From: Thermodesulfobacteriota bacterium
GTDB taxonomy: Bacteria > Desulfobacterota > GWC2-55-46 > DRQE01
Assembly: GCA_035655515.1 (NCBI GenBank)
Contig: DASRUI010000129.1
Location: 1 to 62,769 of the forward strand
DNA: 62,769 bases
Reading direction: 5' to 3'
Part shown: one piece after another, positions 38,909-54,120 of the stretch
How the letters are laid out: every line of letters begins with the position of its first letter
How positions within the stretch are numbered: position 1 is the stretch's first letter
The notes under the pieces: model-generated
What the model was told of the DNA's origin: nothing
Databases searched by the model: none
The model's input: only the letters and a program-made list of their open reading frames with translations
Position numbers and translations under genes: made by a program

Positions 38909-39744
38909 AAAGAACCATAACCGCCTCCGATATAACCAAAACAGTAAAAGAGCTTTGCGTAAAGGCGGCCTACGAACTCGAAGAGGACGTAAAAGACGCT
39001 CTTTCCGTTGCCTACTCCACCGAGGAATCCCCTCTCGGAAGGGAGATTTTGGGCGAGATAATCGAAAACTTCCGTATTGCCGGGCAAGGGGAGTTGCCTC
39101 TTTGCCAGGATACCGGTATAGCGGTATTTTTCGTGGACATCGGGCGCGACGTTTCAATGGACGGCTCTTTGGAGGATGCTATAAACGAGGGAGTGAGGCA
39201 GGGTTACGCCGGCGGGTATTTGAGAAAATCGGTCTGCGACCCTCTTACGAGAAAGAATACCAACGACAATACCCCCGCGATAATTCACGTTACGATTATC
39301 GAAGGCGATAAGGTAAGGATAAGGTTCGCGCCAAAGGGGGCGGGAAGCGAGAACATGAGCAGGCTAAAAATGCTTAAACCTGCCGAAGGCATTGACGGCA
39401 TAAAAAACTTCGTCATTGAGACAGTGAAAGAGGCCGGAGGCAATCCCTGTCCTCCGATAATCGTCGGAGTGGGCATAGGCGGGGATTTCGAGAAGTCCGC
39501 CATACTCGCGAAAGAGGCTCTTTTACGGCGCGTCGGAAGTCCTAATCCCGATAAAGAGGCAGGCGCAATCGAACGCGACTTGCTCGATAAGATAAATAAC
39601 CTTGGCATAGGGCCCATGGGTTTCGGCGGAAGGGCGACGGCCCTCGCCGTGCATATAAAGACCCACCCCTGCCACATAGCGAGCCTTCCGGTGGCGATAA
39701 ACATCCAGTGCCACGCCGACAGGCACAAAGAGGCGGAGATATAG
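38905..39744 (+). CDS. fumA: Class I (Fe-S) fumarate hydratase, alpha (N-terminal domain) subunit
   Basis: LCQDTGIAVFFVDIG ... GAGSENMS ... PPIIVGVGIGG. The start overlaps the mdh stop (ATGA). Confidence 0.9.
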   Translation: MKRTITASDITKTVKELCVKAAYELEEDVKDALSVAYSTEESPLGREILGEIIENFRIAGQGELPLCQDTGIAVFFVDIGRDVSMDGSLEDAINEGVRQGYAGGYLRKSVCDPLTRKNTNDNTPAIIHVTIIEGDKVRIRFAPKGAGSENMSRLKMLKPAEGIDGIKNFVIETVKEAGGNPCPPIIVGVGIGGDFEKSAILAKEALLRRVGSPNPDKEAGAIERDLLDKINNLGIGPMGFGGRATALAVHIKTHPCHIASLPVAINIQCHADRHKEAEI

Positions 39745-39778: not shown

Positions 39779-39873
39779 AGATTGCTTCCCCCCGTTTTCA
39801 CGGGGGCTTCGGCTCACTCGCTCGCAATGACTGTCATTGCGAGTCCCGATGCAACATCGGGACGAAGCAATCT
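39779..39873. repeat. Palindromic GTCATTGCGAG-family repeat (double unit) between the fumarase subunit genes
   Basis: gattgcttccccccgttttcacgggggcttcggctcactcgctcgcaatgactgtcattgcgagtcccgatgcaacatcgggacgaagcaatc. Confidence 0.75.
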
Positions 39874-39915: not shown

Positions 39916-40473
39916 ATGAGCGATACGAAAAAAATAATCCTTCCGCTTAAAGACTCTGACATCGAGAATCTAAAGGCCGGAGACAGGGTTCTTTTAAGCG
40001 GTGTCATTTACACGGCAAGAGACGTGGCGCATAAAAGGCTTATCGAGCTTTTGGATAAGGGAGAGAAACTCCCGTTCGACGTGAAAGGGGAGGTTATCTA
40101 TTACGTAGGCCCGACTCCGGCCAAGCCCGGCTTTGTCATAGGCTCCGCCGGCCCGACCACGAGCGGCAGGATGGACGCTTATACGCCGAGGCTTCTTTCA
40201 TTGGGGCTTAAAGGCACGATAGGCAAGGGCCAGAGGTCGCCGGAGGTCATAGAGGCCATGAAAAAGCATAAGGCGATTTACATGGCGGCGGTAGGAGGGG
40301 CGGCGGCCGTCATCGCGAAGACCATAAAAAAGGCCGAGGTGGTCGCTTACGAGGATTTGGGCGCCGAGGCCATAAGAAGGCTTACGGTCGAGGACTTTCC
40401 CGCGATTGTTGTGAACGACATATACGGCGGAGACCTTTTCAAGCTCGGGGTGGAGAAGTATAAGAGGTCATGA
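39916..40473 (+). CDS. fumB: Class I fumarate hydratase, beta (C-terminal domain) subunit
   Basis: GDRVLLSGVIYTARDVAHKRL ... GPTTSGRMD ... GKGQRS ... typical Fe-S hydro-lyase beta subunit. Confidence 0.9.
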   Translation: MSDTKKIILPLKDSDIENLKAGDRVLLSGVIYTARDVAHKRLIELLDKGEKLPFDVKGEVIYYVGPTPAKPGFVIGSAGPTTSGRMDAYTPRLLSLGLKGTIGKGQRSPEVIEAMKKHKAIYMAAVGGAAAVIAKTIKKAEVVAYEDLGAEAIRRLTVEDFPAIVVNDIYGGDLFKLGVEKYKRS

Positions 40474-40568: not shown

Positions 40569-40608
40569 ATCTCCCTCTCCCCTTGGGGGAGAGGGTTGGG
40601 GTGAGGGG
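40569..40608 (+). repeat. Hairpin repeat TCTCCCTCTCCCC-loop-GGGGAGAGGGTTGGGGTGAGGGG
   Basis: atctccctctccccttgggggagagggttggggtgagggg, 41 nt upstream of hdrC. Confidence 0.8.
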
Positions 40609-40649
40609 TAGTTACGCAGAATGAGACGCGGTAATTAAAGGTATTTACC

Positions 40650-41057
40650 ATGAATATAAAACTCGTAAACAAGGCCTTAAAAAGCCCTGAAATCGAACTC
40701 GTGGAGAAGGTAAGCTCCGAGACGATTGCGAAGTGCTACCAGTGCGGTAATTGCACCGGCGGCTGTCCGGTGTCTTACGCCATGGACCTTCCCCCGACCC
40801 GGATGATAAGGGCATTGCAACTCGGCAGGTTCGATGAGGCCGCATCCGCCGAGTCCATGTGGATTTGCGTCGGATGCCTTCAGTGCTATTCGAGATGCCC
40901 GCAGGGCGTGAGCGCGGCCAATATATTCGAGGCTCTTCGGCAGTTGTCTTTAAGGAGCGGGCGCGACAAGAAGGAGATAAAAGACATACCGATCGAGTTT
41001 TTGAAGAAGGCGCCGCAGCAGGCAATAGTGTGCGGGTTCAGGAAGTTCGTGGGTTGA
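40650..41057 (+). CDS. hdrC: Heterodisulfide reductase subunit C-like 2x[4Fe-4S] protein
   Basis: CYQCGNCTGGCP and CVGCLQCYSRCP motifs, 135 aa, directly upstream of hdrB. Confidence 0.8.
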   Translation: MNIKLVNKALKSPEIELVEKVSSETIAKCYQCGNCTGGCPVSYAMDLPPTRMIRALQLGRFDEAASAESMWICVGCLQCYSRCPQGVSAANIFEALRQLSLRSGRDKKEIKDIPIEFLKKAPQQAIVCGFRKFVG

Positions 41058-41147
41058 CTCCGAAGGCGAAGGACTTAGGGGACTGTCCCAGATTTACGGA
41101 CGGAGCGAAGCGGAGTCGTAGAATCGGGACTGTCCCCGGAACAAATT

Positions 41148-42014
41148 ATGAAGATACCCTATTATCCGGGATGCACCTTAAATACGGTCGCAAAGGCCTT
41201 TGACGTATCCGCGAGGGAGAGCGCGCTCGCGTTGGGCTTCGAGATGCAGGAGTTGCCTCAGTGGAATTGCTGCGGCGCGGCCTTTCCTCTTACTCCGGAT
41301 AATATAATGGGCTTGACCGCTCCGGCAAAGGTCTTGACAGAGGCGAGGGCTTTGGGCGATAGCGTGGTTACCCTCTGTAGCGTCTGCTATAACGTGCTTA
41401 AGCGCACGAATAAGGTTTTAAAGGACGACAAGGAAAAAAGAGGCGTCGTGAACGGCTTCATGGAGCGCGATTACGACGGAAGTTTGAGCGTGGTGCATTA
41501 TCTCGAAGTTTTGAGGGACAAGGTCGGTTTCGATAACGTCAAGAAATCCGTAAAAAGGCCTCTTAAAGGCATTAAGGCGGGCGCTTATTACGGGTGCATG
41601 CTCCTCAGGCCTTTCGAGGACATGGGCATAGACAGGCACGAGGGGCCGACCATAATCGAAGACCTTCTTTCCGCCCTCGGATGCGCTCCCGTTGATTTTC
41701 CGAATAAGATAGAGTGCTGCGGAGCGCACCTTTCCATGTCAAGGACCGACGTGGTGGAAAAACTCTCGACAAGCGTAATGCAGTCGGCCGTCAGAAACGG
41801 CGCCGAGGTTATTGTGACGAGTTGCCCTCTTTGCCAGTACAACTTAGAGATGAGCCAGACTAAGGCCATTGAAACAGTAGCGGGTTATAAGCAGATTCCG
41901 GTAGTTTACTTTACGCAACTCCTCGGATTGGCGTTAGGCCAGACCGAAGATATAGCGGGGTTTAACAGCAACAAATGGGACGCAAGACCGCTCCTTAGGG
42001 AAAGGGGAGTGTGA
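41148..42014 (+). CDS. hdrB: Heterodisulfide reductase subunit B-like (two CCG domains)
   Basis: YYPGCTL ... WNCCGA and YYGCMLLRP ... IECCGA ... SCPLCQ cysteine-rich CCG motifs. Confidence 0.85.
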   Translation: MKIPYYPGCTLNTVAKAFDVSARESALALGFEMQELPQWNCCGAAFPLTPDNIMGLTAPAKVLTEARALGDSVVTLCSVCYNVLKRTNKVLKDDKEKRGVVNGFMERDYDGSLSVVHYLEVLRDKVGFDNVKKSVKRPLKGIKAGAYYGCMLLRPFEDMGIDRHEGPTIIEDLLSALGCAPVDFPNKIECCGAHLSMSRTDVVEKLSTSVMQSAVRNGAEVIVTSCPLCQYNLEMSQTKAIETVAGYKQIPVVYFTQLLGLALGQTEDIAGFNSNKWDARPLLRERGV

Positions 42015-42015
42015 A

Positions 42016-42489
42016 ATGGATAAGCGTTGGGGAGGAGAATTTTTCAAGGAAGAGTTAAAAGAAAAATTTAAAAAAGGTGGAGAAGAAAATCTCACTTTTA
42101 AGCGGAAAGGCGGTAAGGATTTTTGGGAAGTAAAAAACGAACCCAATGAAAAAACTATAAGTTTTCGGATTAAATCAAGCAAGAGTTATGAAAAGGATGA
42201 TGGGTGGGATGGGTGGTATAGAGTAACTGAAGAAGGTTTAGAAGAAAACGAATCCGATTTCTGGGTTTTTTGTTTTAAAGAAAAAGAAGAAAAGCGGCAT
42301 TGCGTTATTGTTCCGTACGAAGAGTTTAAGAGTTTTATGAAGAAGCATGGTGATTTTAGCAAACAATTTAATTTTGGTATTAAGTTGACCGAGGACGGCA
42401 AGTTGAAGACAATAGGCAGCGTTAAAGAGGATTACTCGGATTATTTAGACGACAAAGGGCGGGATTTGATTAAAAAAGCGTTTGCCTGA
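42016..42489 (+). CDS. Hypothetical Lys/Glu-rich protein, low-GC insertion inside the hdr operon
   Basis: 157-aa ORF starting 1 nt after the hdrB stop. A sampled line is about 35% GC against about 60% for its neighbours. No family recognised. Confidence 0.55.
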   Translation: MDKRWGGEFFKEELKEKFKKGGEENLTFKRKGGKDFWEVKNEPNEKTISFRIKSSKSYEKDDGWDGWYRVTEEGLEENESDFWVFCFKEKEEKRHCVIVPYEEFKSFMKKHGDFSKQFNFGIKLTEDGKLKTIGSVKEDYSDYLDDKGRDLIKKAFA

Positions 42490-42490
42490 A

Positions 42491-42553
42491 ATCTCCCTCT
42501 CCCGGGGAGCCCGCGCCAAGCGGCGTGGGTCTGGAGAGGGTTGGGGTGAGGGG
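42491..42553 (+). repeat. Hairpin repeat (TCTCCCTCTCCC...GGAGAGGGTTGGGGTGAGGGG) with a second palindrome nested in its loop
   Basis: atctccctctcccggggagcccgcgccaagcggcgtgggtctggagagggttggggtgagggg, ending 16 nt before the hdrA ATG. Confidence 0.8.
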
Positions 42554-42569
42554 TAATAAGGAGCAGATT

Positions 42570-44543
42570 ATGCCGCGTATAGGCGTATTTGTTTGTCAGT
42601 GCGGAAATAACATAGAGTCAACGGTCGACACCAAGAAGGTGGCCGAAGATATATCGGCCGTGCCCGGGGTGGCGTTCACGTGTTCCTACAAGTTCATGTG
42701 TTCCGCGCCCGGACAGGAGATGTTCAAAAACGCCATAAAGGAGCATAAACTCGACGGCGTGGTCGTATCGGCCTGCTCTCCTCACATGCACGAAAAGACC
42801 TTCAGAAAGGCCGCCGAGGCCGCCGGGCTTAACCCCTTTAAGTGCGAGATAACGAACATCCGCGAGCAGTGCTCATGGGTGCACCACGACACCACGAAGG
42901 CCGCCGGTACGCCGAAGAGCATCGACCTGACGCGCATGACGGTAGAGAGGCTTAAAAGAAATAAAAACCTCAAAAAGATAAAGATACCCATAACAAAAAG
43001 GGCGCTCGTCATAGGCGGCGGAATCGCGGGCATTCAGGCGGCGCTGGACATAGCGGACGGAGGAATGGAGGTCGTGATAGTCGAGAGAGAGCCGTCAATC
43101 GGAGGCAACATGGCGCGCCTTTCCGAGACATTCCCGACAATGGACTGCTCTCAGTGCATCATGACCCCGAAGATGGTCGAGGCGCAGCTTAACGAGAAGA
43201 TAAAACTCTACACCTACTCCGAGGTCGAGAAGGTTGACGGCTATATAGGGAACTTCACGGTCAGGATAAAGAAGAAGGCAAAGTACGTGAACGAGGACCT
43301 CTGCACCGGGTGCGGCGAATGCGTTGAAAAATGCCCGTTCAAGGCCGGAAGCGAATTCGAATTGGGACTCAGCAAAAGAAAGGTCATCTACACGCCGTTT
43401 CCTCAGGCCGTTCCGAACATACCCGTGATAGACGCCCCGAATTGCGCCATGCTCCAGAAGGGCAAATGCGGGATATGCGCCAAGGTCTGCGGGCCCAAGG
43501 CAATAGACTTCGAGCAGAAGGACGAATTTGTAACCGAAAAATTCGGCGCGATAGTCGTGGCCACGGGCTTTGAGCTCATGCCGAACGAGAGGTTCGGAGA
43601 GTACGGATACGGAAAGATTAAGGACGTCATAAACGGGCTTCAGTTCGAACGTTTGGCGTCTTCATCCGGCCCGACCGGAGGCGAGATAAGGCGCCCGTCC
43701 GACGGAAAAATCCCGGAGACAATCGTTTTTCTCCAGTGCGTCGGGTCGAGGGACGAGGCAAAGGGGGTTTCTTATTGCTCGAAGATTTGTTGCATGTACA
43801 CGGCCAAGCACACGATGCTCTACAAGCACAAGGTTCACCACGGACAGGCATACGTCTTCTATATGGACATAAGAAGCGGCGGAAAACGTTACGAAGAATT
43901 CGTCCGCAGGGCCATAGAGCATGAAGGGGCGATGTATCTAAGGAGCCGCGTTTCGAGGGTTTACGAAAAGGACGGAAAAATCATGGTGCAGGGCGCCGAT
44001 ACCTTGAGCGGAACCCAGGTCGAGATAGAGGCCGACATGGTTGTTTTGGCCACAGCCATTGTTTCAAGAAAAGGCGCGGACAGCTTCGCGCAAAAGCTCG
44101 GCATAAGTTACGACAAGCACGGCTTTTATAACGAGTATCATCCGAAACTTAAGCCCGTCGAGACGGTAACGGCCGGGATTTTTCTCGCCGGAACCGCCGT
44201 CGGGCCAATGGACATACCGGAATCAGTGAGCATGGGGAGCGCCTCGGCAAGCAAGGTCTTGGCTCTTTTTTCGAATAGCGAGATGATGAGGGAGCCGATA
44301 GTGGCCGGAGTGAACGCGGCGAGTTGCAACGCCTGCTGGGATTGCGTAACGGCCTGTCCTTATTCGGCCATAGAAAAATTCGCCGTGAAGAACAGGCAGG
44401 GCGAGACAATAAGGTGGCACGCGAAGGTCAACGAAGGGGTTTGTCAGGGTTGCGGGGTTTGCGTGGCGGCTTGCAGGAGCAAGGTCATTGATTTGGCGGG
44501 GTATACGGACGAGCAGGTTTATGCGGCTATAAACGCCTTTTAG
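42570..44543 (+). CDS. hdrA: Heterodisulfide reductase subunit A-like FAD/Fe-S protein
   Basis: ATG at 42570 with AAGGAG upstream. RIGVFVCQCGNNI, FAD motif ALVIGGGIAGIQAALDIA, CTGCGECVEKCP, CGICAKVC, CSKICC, and C-terminal CNACWDCVTACP / CQGCGVCVAAC. Confidence 0.9.
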   Translation: MPRIGVFVCQCGNNIESTVDTKKVAEDISAVPGVAFTCSYKFMCSAPGQEMFKNAIKEHKLDGVVVSACSPHMHEKTFRKAAEAAGLNPFKCEITNIREQCSWVHHDTTKAAGTPKSIDLTRMTVERLKRNKNLKKIKIPITKRALVIGGGIAGIQAALDIADGGMEVVIVEREPSIGGNMARLSETFPTMDCSQCIMTPKMVEAQLNEKIKLYTYSEVEKVDGYIGNFTVRIKKKAKYVNEDLCTGCGECVEKCPFKAGSEFELGLSKRKVIYTPFPQAVPNIPVIDAPNCAMLQKGKCGICAKVCGPKAIDFEQKDEFVTEKFGAIVVATGFELMPNERFGEYGYGKIKDVINGLQFERLASSSGPTGGEIRRPSDGKIPETIVFLQCVGSRDEAKGVSYCSKICCMYTAKHTMLYKHKVHHGQAYVFYMDIRSGGKRYEEFVRRAIEHEGAMYLRSRVSRVYEKDGKIMVQGADTLSGTQVEIEADMVVLATAIVSRKGADSFAQKLGISYDKHGFYNEYHPKLKPVETVTAGIFLAGTAVGPMDIPESVSMGSASASKVLALFSNSEMMREPIVAGVNAASCNACWDCVTACPYSAIEKFAVKNRQGETIRWHAKVNEGVCQGCGVCVAACRSKVIDLAGYTDEQVYAAINAF

Positions 44544-44740
44544 GAGTTAATGCGTATAAACGCCCGTCTGCTTTGTCAGGACTTCGGATTCGAATCCTCA
44601 CATACTATAAAAGTATGCTCCGGTTCGATTCCGACCCGCCCTTTGGGCGGGTGCCCCGCTTTCGCGCATCCGGACGTTTCTCCGCATTAACTGCGCATTC
44701 GGAAGACGTGAGGGTATTTAAAGAATGAACGAAGAGATTT

Positions 44741-44812
44741 GTAGGGTGGGCATTGCCCACCATTTATAGAGAAGCAAATGGCTAATGTTTTGGTGGGCGG
44801 TGCCCACCCTAC
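44741..44812. repeat. MITE-like GTAGGGTGGGC element (72-bp variant) between hdrA and mvhD
   Basis: gtagggtgggcattgcccaccatttatagagaagcaaatggctaatgttttggtgggcggtgcccaccctac. Confidence 0.8.
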
Positions 44813-44846
44813 AAAATTAAGTAAGGTTTTGAAATGAGGAAGCGAT

Positions 44847-45311
44847 ATGGAAGATAATTTACCGATAACTGATAACCGTCAACCGATAACCGCTTTCGAG
44901 CCCAAGATAATGGCCTTTGTGTGCAACTGGTGCACTTACGCCGGGGCTGATTTGGCCGGCACTTCGAGGATGGAGTACAGGCCGAACGTGCGCATCATAA
45001 AATTTCCCTGCACCGGAAGGATTGACCCGCTCTTCATAATAAAGGCGTTTGAAAACGGCGCGGACGGGATATTGGTTTCGGGCTGCCATCCCGGAGACTG
45101 CCACTATACCACGGGCAATTATCACGCGCGGAGAAGGTGGATAGCGTTCAAGGAACTCATGGAATTCACGGGAATAGATTTAAGAAGGCTTCATTTTTCG
45201 TGGGTGTCGGCCTCAGAGGCCATAAAGTGGGTTGATTTGATAAATAATATCACCGATGACGTAAAAAAATTAGGCCCGTTTATCGAGTACAAGGGGCTTA
45301 AGGGGAGGTAG
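44847..45311 (+). CDS. mvhD: Methyl-viologen-reducing hydrogenase delta subunit-like protein (MvhD/FlxD)
   Basis: IMAFVCNWCTYAGADLAG ... IKFPCTGRIDP ... GADGILVSGCHPGDCHY, the typical MvhD/FlpD domain. Confidence 0.85.
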   Translation: MEDNLPITDNRQPITAFEPKIMAFVCNWCTYAGADLAGTSRMEYRPNVRIIKFPCTGRIDPLFIIKAFENGADGILVSGCHPGDCHYTTGNYHARRRWIAFKELMEFTGIDLRRLHFSWVSASEAIKWVDLINNITDDVKKLGPFIEYKGLKGR

Positions 45312-45315
45312 GGTC

Positions 45316-45525
45316 ATGGAAGTTACTTTGAGCATGATAATAGTGGAACTTGAAGACGGAAGTTTCAGGGCCGATTGTCCGGAATTCGATTTTTCCGCAG
45401 TCGGCAAAAACGAAGGAGAGGCGTCGGCGAATCTAAAGGCAGAGGCCGCGAGGCGCGCGAAAGAGGCGAAAGGCTCTTTTACGATAAATAAGGTCAAGTG
45501 CATGAAGTTTAAAGTGAACGCGTAG
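45316..45525 (+). CDS. Small hypothetical protein, possibly HicB/UPF0150-fold
   Basis: 69-aa ORF 4 nt after the mvhD stop. IIVELEDGSFRADCPEFDFSAVGKNEGEASANLKAEA resembles the HicB_N pattern. Confidence 0.4.
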   Translation: MEVTLSMIIVELEDGSFRADCPEFDFSAVGKNEGEASANLKAEAARRAKEAKGSFTINKVKCMKFKVNA

Positions 45526-45531
45526 GGGAAC

Positions 45532-46425
45532 ATGGAAAACGCGATAAGACAAAAGGCAAAGGAACTCCTTGAAAAAGGAGAGGTGAAGGTCGTAGTTGGT
45601 TACGGCTGGAATAAGGCCAAAACGCGCGCCACCCCTGTTTTCATAACAAAGCCGGAGGACGCGGAAAAACTCGTGTTTAATCCCCTTTGCGTGAATAACC
45701 TCTCGCTCTATCTCACGAGGAAGCATAACGAGATAAAGGCCCTTGGCCGCCCCGCGATAGTCGCGAAGGGTTGCGACATAAAAACTATCGCTGTTTTGAT
45801 TGCCGAGGGGCAGTTGAAGAGAGAAGACGTTTACATAATAGGCGTTACCTGTAACGGGGTCGCTTATAAGCAGGAACTCTTTAAGCACGAACTTAAGCCC
45901 GAGATAATGCCGACCAAGTGTCATAACTGCGACGTGAGGAATCCGCATATCGCGGACTTTATTGTCGGCGAGAAGTCTTCTTTTGTTCCTCCTGACGCCC
46001 CGACCGGAATGGTGTTCGACAAGATAAAAGAGATAGACAGGCTGAGTCTTTCCGAAAGGCGGGAGTTCTGGCAGGGGCATTTTTCGAGGTGCGTCAAGTG
46101 TTACGCCTGCAGCAAGGTTTGCCCTCTCTGCTATTGCGAGAGGTGCATAGCGGAAAAGAACGTGCCTCAGTGGATAGAAACCTCGGCCCATCCGAGAGGC
46201 AACCTTGCGTGGAACCTCATACGGGCCATGCACCTTACGGGAAGGTGCACGTTTTGCGGCGAGTGCGAGAGGTCGTGCCCGGTGAACATTCCTCTTAACC
46301 TCGTTAACCAGAAGATGTCGCTCACGGTGAAGGAGGCGTTCGATTATAAATCGGGCTATGACCCGGACGCGCATCCTCCTCTCATAGTATTTAATCCCGA
46401 TGATAAAGAGGATTTCATAAAGTGA
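45532..46425 (+). CDS. 2x[4Fe-4S] iron-sulfur protein (FlxC/FlxB-like)
   Basis: CVKCYACSKVCPLC and CTFCGECERSCPVN ferredoxin motifs. Position matches Flx-type Fe-S subunits next to MvhD/HdrA. Confidence 0.65.
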   Translation: MENAIRQKAKELLEKGEVKVVVGYGWNKAKTRATPVFITKPEDAEKLVFNPLCVNNLSLYLTRKHNEIKALGRPAIVAKGCDIKTIAVLIAEGQLKREDVYIIGVTCNGVAYKQELFKHELKPEIMPTKCHNCDVRNPHIADFIVGEKSSFVPPDAPTGMVFDKIKEIDRLSLSERREFWQGHFSRCVKCYACSKVCPLCYCERCIAEKNVPQWIETSAHPRGNLAWNLIRAMHLTGRCTFCGECERSCPVNIPLNLVNQKMSLTVKEAFDYKSGYDPDAHPPLIVFNPDDKEDFIK

Positions 46426-46434
46426 CCCTTTAGG

Positions 46435-46485
46435 GTCATTGCGAGCGAGTGAGCCGAAGCCCCGTGAAAACGGGGGAAGCAATCT
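46435..46485. repeat. GTCATTGCGAG-family palindromic repeat
   Basis: gtcattgcgagcgagtgagccgaagccccgtgaaaacgggggaagcaatc. This is the inverse of the left half of the 39779 copy. Confidence 0.75.
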
Positions 46486-46533
46486 TTCGAAATAAATAAA
46501 AGCATCCGGTATTTTTGAGCGTGAAATGGATAG

Positions 46534-47556
46534 ATGATTATGGCAAACAAACTTCTAAAAAAAGAAAAACTCGCCTCTCTCATCAGCGGCGTCATTAAGA
46601 AGGGCGGCGTATTCGTCGCTCCGAAGGTTGTGGCGCGGCAGGTTGTTTATTGCCCCGTAACCACGGCGGAGGAGCTCGCCCCGGATTACATAGCGCCGAG
46701 GAATTCCTTTAAAGAGGTCTTCTTTCCGCAGACCGAGGTCATAGCGGAATTTAAGACCGGCAAGGAAGGCACGGAACTGTCGGACGCGAAGGTTACTCCG
46801 AAAAAGACGGTGGTATTCGGCTCGAGGCCGTGCGACGCCGCGAGCGGCGCTTCCTTACGGAGCGTTTTCACGTGGGACTTTGTGGACGAGTTCTATACAA
46901 AGAGGGAAGACAACTCGATTGTGATGAGCATAGCCTGCACAAAAGGCGACGAGTCGTGTTTTTGCGCCACAGTCGGCTTAAAGCCGGATTCCACGGACGG
47001 GAGCGACATACTCCTCAGAGAGGCAGAGGACGGTAATTTCGCCGTTCAGGCGGTAACGGAAAAAGGCAAGGCTTTTATTCAGGAACATAAAGACGCCTTC
47101 GAGGACGACCCGGGCGTAAAGACAAAGGAGATATTCAAGCCAACGGAGCTTAAAAACGTTGACCTCAAGACTCTCTCGGAGAATCTTAAAAAGCGCGAGC
47201 ATTACGAAGACGTGAATTGGGTTCAGCTGGCGGCTAAATGCATAGGGTGCGGCGCTTGCACGTTTTCGTGCCCCACCTGCCACTGCTTCGACATAACGGA
47301 CGAGGGGAGTTTTTCGGAAGGCGAGAGGAGAAAGAACTGGGACGCGTGCCAGTTCGATTTCTTCACCCTCCACGCGAGCGGGCATAATCCGAGGGACGCC
47401 CAGTATAAGAGGTGGAGAAACAGGTTTATGTGCAAGTTCAACATATACCCGGAAAAATTCAAGACAAAGGGTTGCGTGGGTTGCGGAAGGTGCGTGAGGG
47501 TGTGCCCCGTGAGGCTCGACATAACCGAAGTAATGGCCGAGATGTCTAAAATATAA
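46534..47556 (+). CDS. AsrA/HydB-like 2x[4Fe-4S] protein (FlxB-like)
   Basis: CIGCGACTFSCPTCHC and CVGCGRCVRVCPV. Overall layout resembles anaerobic sulfite reductase subunit A / sulfhydrogenase beta. Confidence 0.7.
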   Translation: MIMANKLLKKEKLASLISGVIKKGGVFVAPKVVARQVVYCPVTTAEELAPDYIAPRNSFKEVFFPQTEVIAEFKTGKEGTELSDAKVTPKKTVVFGSRPCDAASGASLRSVFTWDFVDEFYTKREDNSIVMSIACTKGDESCFCATVGLKPDSTDGSDILLREAEDGNFAVQAVTEKGKAFIQEHKDAFEDDPGVKTKEIFKPTELKNVDLKTLSENLKKREHYEDVNWVQLAAKCIGCGACTFSCPTCHCFDITDEGSFSEGERRKNWDACQFDFFTLHASGHNPRDAQYKRWRNRFMCKFNIYPEKFKTKGCVGCGRCVRVCPVRLDITEVMAEMSKI

Positions 47557-47563
47557 GATAATT

Positions 47564-47602
47564 CTCCCTCTCCCCTTTGGGGAGAGGGTTGGGGTGAGGG
47601 GT
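47564..47602 (+). repeat. Hairpin repeat TCTCCCTCTCCCC-loop-GGGGAGAGGGTTGGGGTGAGGGG
   Basis: tctccctctcccctttggggagagggttggggtgagggg, 82 nt upstream of the next ATG. Confidence 0.8.
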
Positions 47603-47684
47603 ATTGGGATTGCTTCCTCGTTCGTCTCCGGATGTATGCGAAAGGGGACTGTCCCCGGAATTGAAGGGTTTCAGGGAAATAATT

Positions 47685-48518
47685 ATGGCCAACATATATC
47701 TGCCGGAACTTGTTACCATAGAAGACGTAAGGGACGAGGCGCCTGACGTAAGGACACTGAGGCTCGTTTTCAAGGACCCCTCGCGGAGGGATAGTTTCGA
47801 GTTCAAGACAGGCCAGTTCGCCCTGTATTCGGCCTTTGGCTACGGAGAATCCACCTTTTGCATAGCCTCGCCTTCGACCCGCAAAGGTTATGTCGAATGC
47901 ACCTTCAGGCGGAGCGGAAGGGTAACAGGGGCGTTGTCCCAACTGGACGTCGGCGACACAATGGGTTTCAGGGGCCCTTACGGGAACTCTTTTCCCGTAG
48001 AGGAGTGGAAGGGCAAGAACCTCGTTTTCATAGCCGGCGGCATAGGGCTTCCGCCCGTCCGTAGCGTAATCTGGACTTGCCTCGACAATAGGAAAGATTA
48101 CGGCGATATAACCATAGTTTACGGCGCGAAGACGGTTAACGATCTCGTCTATAAGAGCGAGCTCAAGGAGTGGGAAGAGAGAGGCGACGTAACGCTCGTT
48201 CAAACCGTTGACCCGGGCGGCGAGACGAGCGAGTGGAAGGGCAAGGTCGGCTTCGTGCCGACCGTCGTCACAGAGACCGCGCCCAAGCCCGGGAACACGG
48301 TTTGCGTGATATGCGGGCCTCCCGTCATGATAAAGTTTTCTTTGCAGGCGCTCGAAAAATCGGGCTTTAGCGCGGACTCTGTTTATACGACCCTGGAGAA
48401 CAAGATGAAGTGCGGCGTGGGCAAGTGCGGAAGGTGCAACGTCGGAGACGTTTATGTTTGCAAGGAAGGCCCTGTCTATACCGCGTCTGAAATTAAAAAG
48501 ATGTATAATGATTTTTAA
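47685..48518 (+). CDS. FAD/NAD(P)H-binding oxidoreductase with C-terminal [2Fe-2S] (AsrB/HydG/PyrK/FlxA-like)
   Basis: ATG at 47685. FNR-like fold: GQFALYS...STFCIASP (FAD), LVFIAGGIGLPPV (NAD(P)), MKCGVGKCGRCNVG...VCKEGPV (2Fe-2S). Confidence 0.8.
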   Translation: MANIYLPELVTIEDVRDEAPDVRTLRLVFKDPSRRDSFEFKTGQFALYSAFGYGESTFCIASPSTRKGYVECTFRRSGRVTGALSQLDVGDTMGFRGPYGNSFPVEEWKGKNLVFIAGGIGLPPVRSVIWTCLDNRKDYGDITIVYGAKTVNDLVYKSELKEWEERGDVTLVQTVDPGGETSEWKGKVGFVPTVVTETAPKPGNTVCVICGPPVMIKFSLQALEKSGFSADSVYTTLENKMKCGVGKCGRCNVGDVYVCKEGPVYTASEIKKMYNDF

Positions 48519-48529
48519 AGGAGCCCGTT

Positions 48530-49318
48530 ATGGCGAACGATAAAAAACAGATAAAGCAGATAGCTACCGGCGACAGGACCATACCCCCGAAAGACGCTCT
48601 TATGATACCCATATACATAATGGGCAAGGAGTACGTGGTTCCCGAGACCCTTACCATAATGAAGGCCATAGAGTATTCAGGGTACAAGTATGTGAGGGGT
48701 TGCGGCTGCAGGGGAGGGATATGCGGCGCGTGCGCCACGTTCTACCGCTTTATTGGAGACTATAAGTTGAGAACCGGGCTCGCCTGCCAGACGGTCGTCG
48801 CGGCGAACATGGTCATAGTCCAGTTGCCGTTCTTTCCGTCGAACAGGCCGCGCTACGACCTCGCGGGGATTAGCAATGGCCCGCACGAGGAATTGAGGCG
48901 TCTTTATCCCGAGGTCTTCAAGTGCGTCGGATGCGGCACGTGCACGAGGACGTGCCCCATGGACATAGACGTCATGGACTACATAGCGCTCATGAAAAGA
49001 GGGGATTTGAAAGGCGCGGCGCATAAGAGTTTCGACTGCGTCATGTGCGGTCTTTGCGCTTCGAGGTGCCCGGCCCAGATATCCCAGTTCACGGCCGCGA
49101 TGTTCGTAAGGCGTCTTTACGGCAGGTACATATTGCCTGCGGCGGAACATCTCAAAAAGAGGGTCGAGGAAGTCAAAAGCGGCAAATACGAGCCCATGCT
49201 CAAGGAACTCGTGGGAAAGAAAGAGGAAGAGGTGAAAAAGCTTTACGTGGAGCGCGAGAGGGAGCCGGATCTGTCCGAGCAGGGCGCGTGGCTTCCGAAG
49301 GATAAGACGAAGCTGTAG
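48530..49318 (+). CDS. SdhB/FrdB-like iron-sulfur protein (2Fe-2S plus two cubane motifs)
   Basis: GCRGGICGACAT parallels SCREGICGSCAM of SdhB. Followed by CVGCGTCTRTCP and CVMCGLCASRCP. Confidence 0.7.
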   Translation: MANDKKQIKQIATGDRTIPPKDALMIPIYIMGKEYVVPETLTIMKAIEYSGYKYVRGCGCRGGICGACATFYRFIGDYKLRTGLACQTVVAANMVIVQLPFFPSNRPRYDLAGISNGPHEELRRLYPEVFKCVGCGTCTRTCPMDIDVMDYIALMKRGDLKGAAHKSFDCVMCGLCASRCPAQISQFTAAMFVRRLYGRYILPAAEHLKKRVEEVKSGKYEPMLKELVGKKEEEVKKLYVEREREPDLSEQGAWLPKDKTKL

Positions 49319-49407
49319 GGAAGGGGACTGTCCCGGATTTACGTGTTTCGTTGTCATTCCCGAGGCTTTAATCGGGAATCCAGGGATTTTTGTTTTAAAG
49401 ACAAAGA

Positions 49408-49441
49408 CTGGATTCCCGCTCAAAAGATTGCGGGAATGACA
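49408..49441. repeat. GGATTCCCGC...GCGGGAATGAC hairpin repeat
   Basis: ctggattcccgctcaaaagattgcgggaatgaca. Near-identical units at 11279-11312 and, inverted, at 61459-61492. A sister unit lies at 49353-49384. Confidence 0.8.
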
Positions 49442-49514
49442 AAAGAGGGACAGATTTACGGGCTTCGCTTGGCGGAGTCCCCGGAACTAAACAACGCTAA
49501 AAAGAGAGGCCAAG

Positions 49515-51170
49515 ATGAGCGGCTACACGAGAGAACTCAAAGAACTCATAAAAAAGGTCGAGGCGACGCGAGGGAAGCGGGTCGAGCGCGCCAGGAAAGG
49601 CGAGCACTTTCCCGCCCTCACCATGGACGAGAGAAAAAAATGGCTCAAGCAATACCATCCCGACTATAAGTCCGACGGGAGGAGGGCGGTTCTCGCGGGG
49701 CCCAATAAGGGAGACGTGTTCCCCGAGGAGGTCGCGGTTCTCCTCGAATCCGAAAGCCTGCTTGACGCCGAAGGCCTTGCCATAAGCAAGCCTGACTACG
49801 AAACCGACGTGCTCGTCATAGGCGGCGGAGGCGCCGGAACATCGGCCGCTCTTTACGCCGCGGCCGAGGGCGCGAGAGTCATACTCTCGACAAAGCTCCG
49901 CCACGGCGATTCCAACACCGTCATGGCCGAGGGCGGCATACAGTGCGCGGACCATGAAGGAGATTCTCCGTACTTTCACTATCTGGACGTCATGGGCGGA
50001 GGACACTTCACGAACCAGCCCGACCTCGTCGCGGCCATGACGAACGACGCCCCCTTGATAGTGAGCTGGCTCGAAGAGATGGGGCTGATGTTCGACAAGC
50101 TTCCGGCCGGAAGGATGAAAGTCAGGCACGGCGGAGGCACCTCGAGGAAACGCATGCACTCGGCCGGAGACATGACCGGAGCCGAGATAATGAGGGTCTT
50201 AAGGGACGAGGCGCAGAACAGGACCGAAAAGATAAAGGTGATGGAATTTTCCCCGGCCGTCGAACTTCTTACGGATAAGTCCGGAGCAATCGCCGGGGCG
50301 ATATTGTATAACCTCGAAACAAAGGAATATTACGTGGTCGCGGCCAAGTCCGTCATCATAGCGACCGGCGGCTTCGGAAGGTTGCACATACAGGGTTTCC
50401 CCACGACAAACCACTACGGCGCCACGGCGGACGGCATTGTTATGGCCTACAGGGCGGGAGTCAGGATGCAGGATCTCGATTCCACCCAGTACCACCCGAC
50501 CGGGGTTGTTTTTCCGGAGCAGAACGTCGGGCTTCTCATAACCGAGAAGGTGAGGGGGCTCGGAACGCAGCTCGTGAACGTCGAGGGGGAAGAGTTCTGT
50601 TTTCCGCTCGAGCCGAGGGACATAGAATCCTCCTGCATAATAAGGGAGTGCCTTGAAATAGGCAAGGGCGTGAACACCCCGACGGGAAGAATCGGCGTTT
50701 GGCTGGATTCCCCGATGATAGACCTGATACACGGCGAAGGCACCATAAGAAAAGAACTTCCGGCCAAGTATATACAGTTTAAGCGCTACAACATCGACAT
50801 AAGCAAGGAGCCCATGCTCATTTACCCGACGTTGCATTATCAAAACGGCGGGCTCAGCATAAACGACAAGAGCGAAACATCCGTTAAGGGGCTTTACGCG
50901 GCGGGAGAGGTATCCGGAGGGGTGCACGGAAGAAACAGGCTCATGGGGAATTCCCTTCTGGACATACTGGTCTTCGGAAGAAGGGCGGGACAAAACGCGG
51001 CCGAATATTCGAAGAAGACGGCCTCTTATCCCGCGCCTACGCTTAATCACGTGAAGGCGTTCCATAAGGAACTCGACAAGGCAGGAGTGAAGGCTCCCGT
51101 AAAGGCGCCGGTGCTTCTTCCGGATTACGCGCCCGACCACGTGAAGAAAAGGCAGTGGTCACAGGAATAG
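49515..51170 (+). CDS. Fumarate reductase/succinate dehydrogenase-type flavoprotein, non-covalent-FAD type, with ~85-aa N-terminal extension
   Basis: DVLVIGGGGAGTSAAL, YHPTG, LITEKVRGLG, LHYQNGG and HGRNRLMGNSL parallel the FrdA/SdhA motifs (FHPT, TEG.RGEGG, HY.MGG, NRLG.NSL). The histidine that carries covalent FAD is absent (GDSNTVMAEGG versus [10 protein letters not shown] in the 57255 gene). Confidence 0.75.
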   Translation: MSGYTRELKELIKKVEATRGKRVERARKGEHFPALTMDERKKWLKQYHPDYKSDGRRAVLAGPNKGDVFPEEVAVLLESESLLDAEGLAISKPDYETDVLVIGGGGAGTSAALYAAAEGARVILSTKLRHGDSNTVMAEGGIQCADHEGDSPYFHYLDVMGGGHFTNQPDLVAAMTNDAPLIVSWLEEMGLMFDKLPAGRMKVRHGGGTSRKRMHSAGDMTGAEIMRVLRDEAQNRTEKIKVMEFSPAVELLTDKSGAIAGAILYNLETKEYYVVAAKSVIIATGGFGRLHIQGFPTTNHYGATADGIVMAYRAGVRMQDLDSTQYHPTGVVFPEQNVGLLITEKVRGLGTQLVNVEGEEFCFPLEPRDIESSCIIRECLEIGKGVNTPTGRIGVWLDSPMIDLIHGEGTIRKELPAKYIQFKRYNIDISKEPMLIYPTLHYQNGGLSINDKSETSVKGLYAAGEVSGGVHGRNRLMGNSLLDILVFGRRAGQNAAEYSKKTASYPAPTLNHVKAFHKELDKAGVKAPVKAPVLLPDYAPDHVKKRQWSQE

Positions 51171-51395
51171 GAAATTCTTGACAAGGGGATAGTCTTATAG
51201 TAAAAAAGGGTGAAAAATCCCTTTGCAACTGACGGAATAAAGGTGGTTACCACCGGGAAGCACAGGGCGGGTACCCATGCGAAGCATGGGTCGGGATAAT
51301 TGTCGACCGTCTGGGCAAATAAAGCGCATCCTTTTTTTAAAAGAAAAGGATAGCTTGTGCTTGGGCGGTTTTTTGTTTTAGAAGCGCGACAATCC

Positions 51396-51456: not shown

Positions 51457-52635
51457 ATGAACATCCACGAATATCAGGCCAAAGAACTTCTCTCAAGGTA
51501 CGGGGTTCGAGTGCCCAGAGGCAAAGTCGCCTTTACTCCGGCCGAGGCCGAGGAAGCGGCAAGGGAATTCCTGAAGGACGGATCAATGTGCGTGGTCAAG
51601 GCTCAGATACACGCGGGAGGCCGCGGCAAGGCCGGAGGGGTTAAGCTCGCGAAGACCAAGGACGAGGCAACGGCCTTCACCGCCGAACTCCTCGGAAAGA
51701 TTTTAGTAACGCACCAGACCGGAGCGCAAGGCAAAGAAGTCAAGAAGGTGCTTGTCGAAGAGGGTTGCGCCATTGCCAAGGAATATTACCTCGGAGTCGT
51801 GGTTGACAGGGCCAGCCAGAGCGTTACTCTTATCGCTTCGAGCGAGGGAGGAGTCGAGATAGAAGAGGTCGCGGCAAAATCCCCGGAAAAAATCTTGAAG
51901 GTATCGGTGGATATTGCCGTCGGGCTTATGCCGTTTCAGGCCCGTAACATAGCCTTTGCCCTCGGCATGGACAAAAACGCCGTTAATAAGGCCGTTAAGT
52001 TCATGGCCTCCCTTTATAACGCGTTCGTTGACCTCGATTGTTCCATGGCCGAGATAAACCCGCTTGTGGTCACGAAAGACGGGGACGTTATGGCTCTCGA
52101 CGCGAAGATTTCATTCGACGATAACGCGCTTTTCCGCCACAAAGACATCGAAGGCATGCGCGACCCGGACGAGGAAGACCCCAAGGAAGTCGCGGCATCG
52201 AGGTTCAACCTCAACTACGTCTCCCTTGACGGCAATATCGGGTGCATGGTGAACGGGGCGGGCCTCGCTATGGCCACGATGGACATGATAAAACTCTCCG
52301 GCGGAAGCCCGGCGAACTTTCTCGACGTCGGGGGCGGAGCGACGAAGGAGCAGGTTACGGCCGCGTTCAAGCTCCTGATGTCGGACCCTAACGTGGAGGC
52401 GGTTTTAGTGAACATATTCGGCGGCATAATGAAGTGCGACATAATAGCCGAGGGCATAGTGCAGGCCGCCAAAGACGTGGGCGTGAAGATCCCTCTCGTG
52501 GTAAGGCTTCAGGGCACTAACGTTGACAAGGGCAGGAAAATTCTCAATGAGTCGGGACTCAACATAATATCCGCCGAGCACATGGACGATGCCGCGAAAA
52601 AAGCAGTGCAAGCGGTTCGGGGAGCCAAGAGATGA
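51457..52635 (+). CDS. sucC: Succinyl-CoA ligase (ADP-forming) beta subunit
   Basis: [12 protein letters not shown] ... [18 protein letters not shown] ... [11 protein letters not shown] ... [10 protein letters not shown]. Confidence 0.9.
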
Positions 52636-53507
52636 GCATACTCGTAAATAAATCCACGAAGGTAATCTGTCAGGGAATAACCGGCGAGCAGGGCGCTTTT
52701 CATACCGCCCAGATGGTCGCCTACGGCACCCGGATGGTCGGAGGCGTAACGCCGGGCAAGGGCGGAACGGACGTTAACGGCATTCCGGTCTTTAACACCG
52801 TGGGAGAGGCCAAGAAAAAGACAAATGCCGACGCCTCCGTCATATACGTTCCCGCGGCCTTTGCCGCCGACGCCATAATGGAGGCAATTGACGCGGGAAT
52901 CGGCCTTATTATCTGCATAACCGAAGGCATACCCGTCGTTGACATGATAAAGGTGAAAAAATTTATGCAGGGAAAACCCTCGAGGCTTGTCGGGCCGAAC
53001 TGCCCCGGCGTCATAACTCCGGATGAGTGCAAGATAGGCATAATGCCGGGACACATCCACAAGAAAGGCTCCATAGGAGTGGTATCGAGGAGCGGGACAC
53101 TTACCTACGAGGCGGTTGACCAGTTGACGCGTCTCGGACTCGGGCAATCCACCTGCGTCGGCATAGGCGGAGACCCGATAAACGGCGCTAATTTCATAGA
53201 CGTATTGGGCATGTTCGAAAAAGACCCGGAAACTTCGGCGATGATAATGATAGGAGAGATAGGCGGAAGCGCGGAGGAAGAGGCCGCGGAGTTCATAAAG
53301 AAAAACGTCAAAAAGCCCGTCGTCGCCTACATAGCCGGGGTTACGGCCCCGAAAGGCAAGAGGATGGGGCACGCCGGGGCCATCATAGCCGGAGGCAAGG
53401 GCACGGCGGACGAAAAATACGCGGCATTGGAAATGGCCGGAATAAAGACCACCAGAAGCCCGGCCGAACTCGGCAAGACCGTCATGGAACTCGTGAAGAA
53501 AGCGTGA
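52632..53507 (+). CDS. sucD: Succinyl-CoA ligase alpha subunit
   Basis: [14 protein letters not shown] ... GPNCPGVI ... SRSGTLTYE ... GIGGDP ... MGHAGAII (phosphohistidine loop). ATGA overlap with sucC. Confidence 0.95.
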
Positions 53508-53510
53508 TAT

Positions 53511-53709
53511 AAAAAACCCGTAGTTGCGTATATCGCAGGGGTTACCGCCCCCAAGGGAAAGAGGATGGGCCACGCCGGAGCCATCATAGCAAGAGGCTGA
53601 GGGCACGGCGGACGAAAAATACGCGGCATTGGAAATGGCCGGTATAAAGACCACAAGAAGCCCGGCCGAACTCGGCAAGACCGTCATGGAACTCGCGAAG
53701 AAAGTGTGA
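53511..53709 (+). pseudogene. Ghost copy of the last ~65 codons of sucD (frameshifted, premature stop)
   Basis: Starts 3 nt after the sucD stop and aligns with 53311-53507. The first 27 codons encode the same peptide ([27 protein letters not shown]) with 14 synonymous changes. A 1-nt insertion (ggcTGAggg versus ggcAAGggc) then creates a stop and frameshift. The last ~110 nt are nearly identical. Confidence 0.85.
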
Positions 53710-53763
53710 TAAATTGTAAAAGCCCGTTATAATCCGTCTGTAAACAGTAAGGAGATTTTTAAG

Positions 53764-53967: not shown

Positions 53968-54120
53968 GTATGCAGAACGTCATAACTTCGCATACCCGAC
54001 CCACACTTTGTGTGGGCGCCCCTGCTTTGTCCTGACGTTCTGTGGTGCGCTGGCGCTGTCTGACATTATAGGGTAGGATTTTTCGGAAGCCTTACAGTAA
54101 GTTCACGGAGGGTCTTAAAC

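Follow-up and report, generated by a model that had tools for sequence, protein, structure and literature searches.

A candidate soluble, possibly electron-bifurcating fumarate reductase encoded with Hdr- and Flx-like subunits in an uncultured Thermodesulfobacteriota bacterium

Does a single run of hdr-, flx- and frd-like genes in an uncultured bacterium encode a soluble fumarate reductase that also reduces ferredoxin? This question is raised by contig DASRUI010000129.1 (assembly GCA_035655515.1, Thermodesulfobacteriota bacterium), the 62,769 nucleotides of which are referred to here as the window. A preliminary description made from the sequence alone had listed eleven genes in this run, from an hdrC-like gene to a fumarate-reductase-type flavoprotein gene, and had read them as a possible bifurcating fumarate reductase. 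Its eleven open reading frames (ORFs) are present on the + strand within 40650-51170, the exact span from hdrC to the flavoprotein FrdA', and their labels agree with Pfam, NCBIfam and PDB matches. The cluster was also correctly placed between fumarase and succinyl-CoA ligase genes: mdh and fumarase genes lie upstream and sucCD and korDABC downstream, and all genes from nucleotides 37979 to 60812 lie on the + strand. The gene list held for nine conserved genes; the two ORFs left unnamed, orf157 and orf69, proved to be lineage-specific. On balance, with somewhat better than even confidence, we read the nine genes as encoding a soluble, multi-subunit, electron-bifurcating fumarate reductase of a reductive tricarboxylic acid (TCA) branch, built from three modules. 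The mechanism proposed earlier is thus partly supported and reasonable, but it is not new: the locus is a predicted, biochemically uncharacterised kind of system, found here in an uncultured anaerobe.

The flavoprotein FrdA' retains an intact fumarate site. Residues H327, R347, H441 and R475 are invariant in a family alignment of 36 members, which reaches down to 39% identity, and the motifs QYHPTG, EKVRGLG, HYQNGG and NRLMGNS are unchanged over the same range. In SdhA, both in solved structures and in the canonical protein encoded nearby, the four residues correspond by alignment to the motifs HPT, RGxG, HY..GG and NRL; the dicarboxylate site of E. coli FrdA we take to be H232, R287, H355 and R390. 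An AlphaFold (AF2) model of FrdA' reached a predicted local distance difference test score (pLDDT) of 94 and a predicted template modelling score (pTM) of 0.92 when calculated from a 76-sequence alignment, compared with a pLDDT of 60 from 34 close homologues. The top matches in a fold search with this model were E. coli FrdA (5vpn_A, 1kf6_A), M. smegmatis Sdh1 subunit A and flavocytochrome c3 (Fcc3). Because the four site residues are invariant, E. coli FrdA is the top fold, the glutamate of NadB is absent, and fumarase and sucCD genes adjoin, the sequence data support a fumarate-reductase-type assignment. We rejected NadB as an identity for FrdA': its model TIGR00551 scores 290 bits against a cut-off of 453, it ranks only 24th in the fold search, and Gly206 occupies the position of E. 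coli NadB Glu121, which we take to bind the substrate amino group. The check for a grouping with NadB or AprA, suggested in the preliminary description, gave neither.

FrdA' is nonetheless not a standard FrdA, which corrects the earlier description. Its Pfam content is restricted to FAD_binding_2 (PF00890, residues 98-481); Pfam finds no PF02910 C-terminal domain, and the chain ends about 50 residues past the FAD domain. It carries in addition a family-specific N-terminal extension of 95 amino acids, which contains HPDY and GPNKG motifs that are near-invariant across the family and is therefore a family trait rather than a mis-called start. A Pfam scan of this extension and of the C-terminal tail (E <= 1) gave nothing meaningful. 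No NCBIfam model reaches its cut-off for FrdA'. The highest is TfrA (NF004900, 348 bits, cut-off 718), matched over positions 6-410 of 546 with the final quarter unmatched, followed by Sdh/Frd models at 309 and 298 bits. The histidine that binds FAD covalently in complex II is replaced by Asn134 (D-S-N134-T), and this asparagine is invariant in the FrdA' family; the canonical SdhA encoded about 6 kb downstream keeps the histidine (RSHS, within a ten-residue motif). FAD is thus predicted to be bound non-covalently in FrdA', as is typical of one-way (soluble) fumarate reductases.

The Fe-S partner FrdB' contains the motifs C60x4C65x2C68...C86, C132xxCxxCxxxC142P and C170xxCxxCxxxC180P, which match one [2Fe-2S] and two [4Fe-4S] clusters and use up all 13 of its cysteines. 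Motif inspection and Pfam revealed no [3Fe-4S] motif and no CCG domain. Since every cysteine is committed to the three clusters and a CCG domain is missing, FrdB' would by its sequence be incapable of oxidising thiols alone. It falls short of canonical SdhB/FrdB, scoring 41 bits on the SdhB model TIGR00384 (cut-off 88); the label 'SdhB-like' given to it earlier is corrected by this score and by two full [4Fe-4S] motifs in place of a [3Fe-4S] motif. We accordingly rejected canonical complex II as an identity for FrdA'/FrdB', which have no covalent-FAD histidine, PF02910 domain, membrane anchor or [3Fe-4S] motif.

Upstream of this pair, the Hdr subunits are complete. HdrA aligns with M. wolfeii HdrA of the solved Mvh-Hdr complex (5odc_A) over its full length (654 bits, query 2-651 on chain 4-643), with all cysteine motifs in register, and carries N-terminal, inserted and C-terminal ferredoxin domains together with a thioredoxin-reductase-like FAD domain. 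The short sHdrA type (6tjr_A) matches its core only, at 133 bits. By these alignments HdrA belongs to the full-length bifurcating type and not to the short, non-bifurcating sHdrA type. Its true start is probably ATG 42570, since homology begins at Met16 of the listed ORF. HdrB matches solved structures with E-values of 8e-41 (9sfi_C) and 2e-35 (5odc_B), and both of its CCG motifs are complete (C9, C41C42, C77xxC80 and C150, C190C191, C226xxC229); HdrC contains C29xxCxxCxxxC39P and C73xxCxxCxxxC83P. The MvhD assignment is unambiguous by its Pfam match (PF02662, 175 bits).

The remaining three conserved genes resemble an Flx module. FlxB-like and FlxA-like are counterparts of the beta (9nez_B, 1e-37) and gamma (9nez_C, 205 bits) subunits of Pyrococcus furiosus sulfhydrogenase I, and would therefore form an NAD(P)H-oxidising flavo-Fe-S pair. 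Residues 175-288 of FlxC-like match the C-terminus of FdhB from Fdh-Hdr complexes (7bkb_E, 1e-23). The true start of FlxA-like is probably ATG 47685. Read backwards, hdrCBA-flxDCBA is the FlxABCD-HdrABC arrangement, and all seven subunit types are contiguous, in agreement with the resemblance noted previously.

We then examined whether the eleven genes encode soluble proteins from one transcription unit. Kyte-Doolittle hydropathy in 19-residue windows peaked at 0.04-1.66 across the eleven proteins, below the soluble reference SucD (1.84), which indicates that none of them is a membrane anchor, as had been claimed. A promoter-like site lies at 37765-37794, 5' of mdh. A consensus scan found no terminator in the + strand intergenic gaps (the total for the window was not above chance); separate transcription units for the hdr/flx and frd genes, named previously as a result that would count against the proposal, are thus not indicated. 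Several gaps are wide, namely 176 bp 5' of hdrC, 303 bp between hdrA and mvhD, 108 bp 5' of the AsrA-like (FlxB-like) gene and 196 bp 5' of FrdA', because palindromic repeats resembling repetitive extragenic palindromic (REP) elements fill them (40570-40610, 42515-42555 and 47563-47603; 39790-39831 and 46435-46476; 44738-44815). Similar repeats recur elsewhere in the window and in related loci. With repeats inside the gaps and no terminators, we rejected the gaps as operon breaks. The repeats also extend over the annotated starts of hdrA and of the AsrB-like (FlxA-like) gene, both of which are probably placed too early.

The inserts orf157 and orf69 match no Pfam or NCBIfam family (Pfam to E <= 1). 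For orf157 there is no DNA or protein counterpart in any related locus, including the closest relative (L055, about 94% protein identity), and orf69 is matched in that relative only. Both are by this distribution lineage-specific inserts and not subunits of the conserved system. By eye, orf69 is reminiscent of a HicB/UPF0150-type small protein.

To determine how firmly the modules are linked, we made a survey at one genome per species; 123 relatives were found and 80 loci kept, and a locus was called informative where enough upstream DNA was present to show its neighbours. FrdB' adjoins FrdA' in every one of the 80 loci with sufficient upstream DNA. Matches to the window come from metagenome-assembled genomes (MAGs) that bear the labels Thermodesulfobacteriota or 'Deltaproteobacteria bacterium'; one protein (P0001) is identical to FrdA' (100%). 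Within the own clade (73-94% identity), the complete hdrCBA-mvhD-flxCBA-frdB'A' set is present in 22/22 informative loci, with fumarase upstream and sucCD and kor downstream wherever the flanks extend that far; two further loci end within hdrA. In other phyla (59-66% identity), hdrCB lies directly upstream of frdB'A' in 21 of the 27 informative loci: nine have hdrCB only, 12 have hdrCB and hdrA with or without mvhD and lack AsrAB-like genes, and the other six have no Hdr gene in reach. These MAGs are labelled Zixibacteria, Acidobacteriota, Aminicenantes, Methylomirabilis, Dehalococcoidales and Gemmatimonadota, among others. In some of these lineages at least, the gaps between hdrB, FrdB' and FrdA' are below 50 bp or the genes overlap. 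Fumarase, sucCD or kor genes are neighbours in 54/80 loci. Pfam searches of neighbouring proteins showed no clear donor module in the 10-kb flanks of the distant HdrA-containing loci. The pattern of linkage bears out the connection between Hdr/Flx and Frd genes that had been proposed, argues against their coincidental adjacency, and fits HdrCB being a docking and electron-delivery partner of FrdB'. A parallel is found in methanogen TfrB, where CCG domains and an FrdB-like part make up one protein.

What stays constant across these loci is FrdB'A', most often accompanied by HdrCB, to which HdrA-MvhD and Flx are additions. Other wiring was also observed. In some Thermodesulfobacteriota MAGs (L063, 6550-13884; also L062, L068 and L071), FrdB'-FrdA' stands amid multihaem cytochromes c, Fe-S proteins and an NrfC/NrfD-type membrane module, with no Hdr genes. 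In marine Gammaproteobacteria (L081/L082, 9366-12891), a NuoF-like FMN/NADH/[4Fe-4S] protein is encoded next after FrdB'-FrdA' (49% identity), an arrangement that suggests a three-subunit NADH:fumarate reductase variant. An all-against-all search of representatives gathered 2541 proteins at E <= 1e-30, in which extension-bearing members of the FrdA' family reach down to about 40% identity. One of 542 amino acids with the N-terminal extension (P0285; its cluster representative P0128 is at 44% identity) is recorded from Prochlorococcus sp. MIT 1201, an unexpected host. We tentatively suggest, giving the idea a little less than even credence, that FrdA'B' is a distinct and widespread plug-in class of soluble fumarate reductase, characterised by non-covalent FAD, an HPDY/GPNKG extension replacing the C-terminal domain and a partner with a [2Fe-2S] and two [4Fe-4S] clusters, that it is wired to at least five electron-input modules, and that its Hdr-Flx version in this lineage is truly a bifurcating NAD(P)H:fumarate/ferredoxin oxidoreductase which supplies the ferredoxin-dependent steps of the reductive TCA (rTCA) cycle from NAD(P)H alone. 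The five modules may be HdrCB alone, HdrABC-MvhD, HdrABC-Flx, NuoF-like, and NrfCD with multihaem cytochromes.

In the mechanism that we favor, the FlxA-, FlxB- and FlxC-like proteins would oxidise NAD(P)H and pass electrons via the [2Fe-2S] of MvhD/FlxD to the FAD of HdrA. There, one electron would be routed uphill through the ferredoxin domains of HdrA to a low-potential ferredoxin, and the second downhill through HdrC to HdrB. From HdrC/HdrB, electrons would enter the Fe-S chain of FrdB' directly and reach the non-covalent FAD of FrdA', where fumarate would be reduced to succinate. The net reaction would be 2 NAD(P)H + fumarate + 2 Fd(ox) -> 2 NAD(P)+ + succinate + 2 Fd(red), where Fd is ferredoxin, and the reduced ferredoxin could feed the neighbouring KorDABC. 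The NADH:fumarate couple releases 58 kJ/mol (-58 kJ/mol in a table of PMC13147460), which leaves room for ferredoxin reduction. Complex formation, the direct transfer from HdrB/C to FrdB', bifurcation, and the choice between NADH and NADPH are what we infer from the gene content; for bifurcation to ferredoxin, the full-length methanogen-type HdrA and MvhD are the sole pointers. If the mechanism is correct, the cost of making low-potential ferredoxin with NAD(P)H would be covered by fumarate reduction, which would explain both the ferredoxin supply to rTCA carboxylases in many anaerobes and the tolerance of a seemingly wasteful NADH:fumarate step.

Previous studies have described the same association of Flx-Hdr and Frd genes and the same bifurcation idea, which have been in print since 2019, so that the window adds no new idea. 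A frdB-frdA-hdrC-hdrB-korDABC-hdrA-flxDCBA-aclBA cluster was reported from tubeworm symbionts, Thioflavicoccus mobilis and an aquifer MAG, and proposed to encode a complex shuttling electrons to OGOR and fumarate reductase (Rubin-Blum et al., 2019; PMC6315080). In Endoriftia the genes of this cluster are co-expressed, tfrAB standing somewhat apart (Mitchell et al., 2024; PMC11636981). A 'succinate operon' of Pseudoclostridium thermosuccinogenes, comprising fumarate hydratase, seven Flx-Hdr genes and two Frd genes, is described in a preprint of Koendjbiharie and van Kranenburg (10.20944/preprints201912.0288.v1), as relayed in PMC7282089. In Cloacimonadota, TFR, OGOR, fumarase and succinyl-CoA synthetase are clustered with Hdr and with Mvh hydrogenase as the proposed electron donor (Williams et al., 2021; PMC8542988), and a 2026 survey restates the bifurcation hypothesis (PMC13147460). 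The preliminary description had not recognised the combination as characterised; with respect to biochemistry our literature search agrees, whereas the cluster and mechanism had already appeared in these five sources.

Compared by published gene lists, the clusters of the symbionts, T. mobilis and P. thermosuccinogenes share all nine gene types with the window, likewise on a single strand and together with TCA genes, have fumarase, kor and sucCD as neighbours, include no reported anchor gene, and were given the same mechanism, in which NADH is bifurcated to fumarate and ferredoxin. In P. thermosuccinogenes even the order given in the relayed account (fumarase, seven Flx-Hdr genes, two Frd genes) is shared. 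Looking for carriers in culture, we searched with the flavoprotein of a Eubacteriales MAG (L056); all proteins recovered were unnamed or from MAGs. Unlike in the symbionts, the kor genes of the window are not interleaved with hdr genes and no aclAB lies nearby; the host also differs, being an uncultured Thermodesulfobacteriota/'Deltaproteobacteria' MAG lineage, which makes the window less testable than the cultured carriers P. thermosuccinogenes and T. mobilis. It is a clean, compact example, with fumarase, Hdr-Flx and Frd in one run followed by sucCD and Kor. What is added here is a definition of the FrdA'B' family by traits of sequence and structure, together with a cross-phylum census of its modular wiring, in which the Frd pair is linked to hdrCB in many uncultured phyla.

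More distant systems share individual modules. All seven subunit types of Desulfovibrio vulgaris FlxABCD-HdrABC (Ramos et al., 2015, as cited in PMC6315080 and PMC7282089) are likewise contiguous on one strand in the window, although in reversed order and with two non-conserved inserts; as those citations present it, the D. vulgaris set is linked to an alcohol dehydrogenase and has DsrC as high-potential acceptor, whereas the window set is linked to fumarase and Frd genes and fumarate is the proposed acceptor via FrdB'A'. Full-length homologues of HdrA, HdrB, HdrC and MvhD from methanogen Mvh/Fdh-HdrABC complexes (5odc, 7bkb, 8rvu) are encoded in the window; the donor in those complexes is a hydrogenase or formate dehydrogenase and the acceptor heterodisulfide, compared with an NAD(P)H-type HydBG-like pair and, as proposed, fumarate here. 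Methanothermobacter TfrAB (Heim et al., 1998, as cited in PMC6315080) is soluble and, like the window set, combines a flavoprotein with a [2Fe-2S]/two [4Fe-4S] subunit and HdrB-type CCG domains. As cited there, the Fe-S and CCG parts form a single protein in TfrB, whereas the window has separate genes for FrdB', HdrC and HdrB, possibly a functional equivalent in trans; the TfrA model lacks the N-terminal extension of FrdA', which remains far below its cut-off, and TfrAB is from a methanogen whereas the window host is a bacterium.

The five-subunit NADH-FRD of Hydrogenobacter thermophilus (Miura et al., 2008, via PMC13147460 and PMC10052474), put forward previously as a comparator, turned out to be a poor one. 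It shares solubility, NADH dependence, a role in the rTCA cycle and a FrdA/FrdB pair, yet the Aquifex counterparts of FrdC/D/E, of 59.5 kDa (aq_116), 53.3 kDa ('nox', aq_835) and 19.4 kDa ('dmsB2', aq_067), are by annotation not Hdr/Flx (PMC10052474), its genes are scattered in the genome, and bifurcation is not claimed in these accounts. Judged by annotation and size of the Aquifex counterparts alone, the cluster holds nothing like FrdC/D/E. Type E succinate:quinone oxidoreductase and MFR (SdhABE) resemble the window set in having a CCG protein (SdhE/HdrB-like) alongside an SdhB that bears a second [4Fe-4S] motif, but HdrB scores only 178 bits on the MFR SdhE model (cut-off 500). A genuine SdhABE set encoded downstream has the covalent-FAD histidine and the C-terminal domain (PF02910, 143 bits), both of which the Frd' pair lacks. 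As this set has its own CCG protein, we rejected HdrB as its SdhE anchor.

Several observations weigh against a bifurcating fumarate reductase. Our literature search found no biochemical characterization of any Flx-Hdr/Frd member, and in Endoriftia the expression of tfrAB did not follow that of the other cluster genes (PMC11636981). Both CCG motifs of HdrB are complete, as a disulfide-reducing site would require, so that a thiol intermediate is possible. In many relatives hdrCB-frdB'A' occurs with neither HdrA nor Flx, and others have NuoF-like or NrfCD modules with cytochromes; with such partners the Frd dimer would work without bifurcation. The window encodes no ATP-citrate lyase and thus does not demonstrate a complete rTCA cycle, and a ZTP-controlled terminator between frdA' and sucC (see below) suggests that the ferredoxin-consuming Kor genes are separately regulated in this genome. 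One alternative is a thiol shuttle, offered as an option in supplementary note 3 of PMC6315080, in which Flx-HdrABC would reduce a disulfide, either of a protein (e.g., DsrC-like) or of low molecular weight, while bifurcating to ferredoxin and HdrBC-FrdB'A' would re-oxidise the thiol as a split thiol:fumarate reductase, like methanogen TfrAB. The intact CCG motifs, the rank of TfrA as top NCBIfam model for FrdA', and the four-gene hdrCB-frdB'A' core of nine loci, which resembles TfrAB split four ways, are all in its favor. We consider it unlikely, given that the single hdrB/hdrC pair could hardly both reduce and oxidise the same carrier, that Pfam and NCBIfam reveal no DsrC-like or other carrier gene in the cluster, that FrdB' itself lacks a CCG domain, and that synthesis of CoM-CoB heterodisulfide is not known from bacteria. 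Alternatively, Hdr and Flx might be a mere electron wire in a plain NAD(P)H:fumarate reductase that reduces no ferredoxin, as the simple NuoF-like NADH module paired with FrdB'A' in L081/L082 would suggest; the soluble Hydrogenobacter enzyme is likewise given as NADH-dependent, with no bifurcation mentioned for it (PMC13147460). A full-length HdrA with every ferredoxin domain plus MvhD would however be a costly wire, and all solved-structure HdrA matches of the same type belong to complexes named heterodisulfide/ferredoxin reductase, which makes this explanation improbable.

Two further alternatives change the direction or the substrate. Running as part of an oxidative TCA cycle, the enzyme could oxidise succinate and Kor-reduced ferredoxin jointly to form NAD(P)H; HdrA-type enzymes are reversible in principle, and with Kor, sucCD and a second Sdh adjoining, the cycle could run in either direction. 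Using textbook potentials, we estimate a mean donor potential of (+30 - 450)/2 = ~-210 mV, above that of NAD+/NADH (-320 mV), so that the reaction would be uphill by about 40 kJ/mol under standard conditions; moreover, FrdA' has lost the covalent-FAD histidine, and the histidine-containing SdhABE next door is available for succinate oxidation. We regard such confurcation as the least probable of the alternatives. It is likewise highly unlikely that FrdA'B' acts on another substrate (L-aspartate as in NadB, or another enoate) or that the adjacency to Hdr/Flx is coincidental. The family is divergent, with its N-terminal extension and absent C-terminal domain, and the NadB model comes close to the Frd models (298-348 bits), all being below cut-off. 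The glycine at the NadB glutamate position and the low fold rank of NadB nevertheless point to fumarate, as do the obligate, always adjoining Fe-S partner, which NadB does not have, the TCA genes near most of the surveyed loci, and the linkage to hdrCB across phyla. We therefore retain the bifurcating NAD(P)H:fumarate/ferredoxin reductase as the favored explanation of the locus, the features of which are listed in Table 1.

Table 1. Positions in the window of the cluster and the genes that flank it.
Feature	Position	Strand	Support
mdh (malate dehydrogenase); opens same-strand run	37979-38908	+	TIGR01763, 452 bits
Class I fumarase alpha	38905-39744	+	PF05681, 396 bits
Class I fumarase beta	39916-40473	+	PF05683, 210 bits
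hdrC-like, 2x[4Fe-4S]	40650-41057	+	TIGR03290, 74 bits, below cut-off
hdrB-like, two CCG domains	41148-42014	+	PF02754 twice
orf157, Lys/Glu-rich	42016-42489	+	No family match
hdrA, full-length methanogen-type flavo-Fe-S protein	42525-44543	+	5odc_A, 654 bits; HdrA2 model, 760 bits
mvhD/flxD-like [2Fe-2S] connector	44847-45311	+	PF02662, 175 bits
orf69, small ORF	45316-45525	+	No family match
FlxC-like Fe-S protein, weak FrhB/FdhB-C domain + 2x[4Fe-4S]	45532-46425	+	PF04432, 3e-6
FlxB-like, AsrA/HydB-type Fe-S protein	46534-47556	+	PF17179, 108 bits; 9nez_B, 1e-37
FlxA-like, AsrB/HydG-type FAD/NAD(P)H/[2Fe-2S] protein	47604-48518	+	PF00175, PF00970, PF10418; 9nez_C, 205 bits
FrdB' (FeS262, 262 aa)	48530-49318	+	[2Fe-2S] + 2x[4Fe-4S] motifs
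FrdA' (flavo551, 551 aa)	49515-51170	+	PF00890, 261 bits
ZTP riboswitch aptamer, then terminator to ~51380, 5' of sucC	51215-51323	+	RF01750
sucC + sucD (succinyl-CoA synthetase)	51457-53507	+	NF001913, 596 bits; NF004230, 487 bits
korD, korA, korB, korC (four-subunit 2-oxoacid:ferredoxin oxidoreductase)	53764-56836	+	PF01855, PF02775, PF01558
sdhA-sdhB-sdhE, second canonical type-E-like set	57180-60812	+	PF00890 + PF02910; PF13085; two CCG domains

The region downstream of frdA' contains a well-formed ZTP (pfl-motif) riboswitch, which scores 50.1 bits on RF01750 (gathering score 39). Its pseudoknot shows a compensatory GACGG/CCGUC change, and the 5' arm of the terminator that follows overlaps the 3' pseudoknot strand and has a U-run behind it, the classic layout of an ON-switch. 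As it lies between the stop codon of FrdA' and sucC, succinyl-CoA synthetase, and possibly kor too, would be under ZMP/ZTP control, which is an unusual target. The riboswitch was not found in six related loci, the closest relative included. The purine genes purD, purH (AICAR transformylase/IMP cyclohydrolase, which consumes ZMP) and purA are also in the window, at 16167-19028 (-) and 29927-31252 (-), with no riboswitch match adjoining. A frame-shifted, non-coding copy of the final ~200 bp of sucD (53310-53509) follows at 53511-53711 with 83-96% identity, either a duplication remnant or an assembly artefact. KorD contains two CxxCxxCxxxCP motifs. With FrdB'A' and SdhABE, two different fumarate/succinate enzymes are encoded in one locus; the type-E SdhABE could take over succinate oxidation, and the locus may thus serve both directions of the cycle. 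Elsewhere in the window, a tmRNA at 10753-11103 marks the DNA as bacterial, and the stretch between a Sel1/TPR repeat protein gene and mdh (37085-37805, +) encodes a DUF7718 protein (37085-37402) and contains two small ORFs that match no family.

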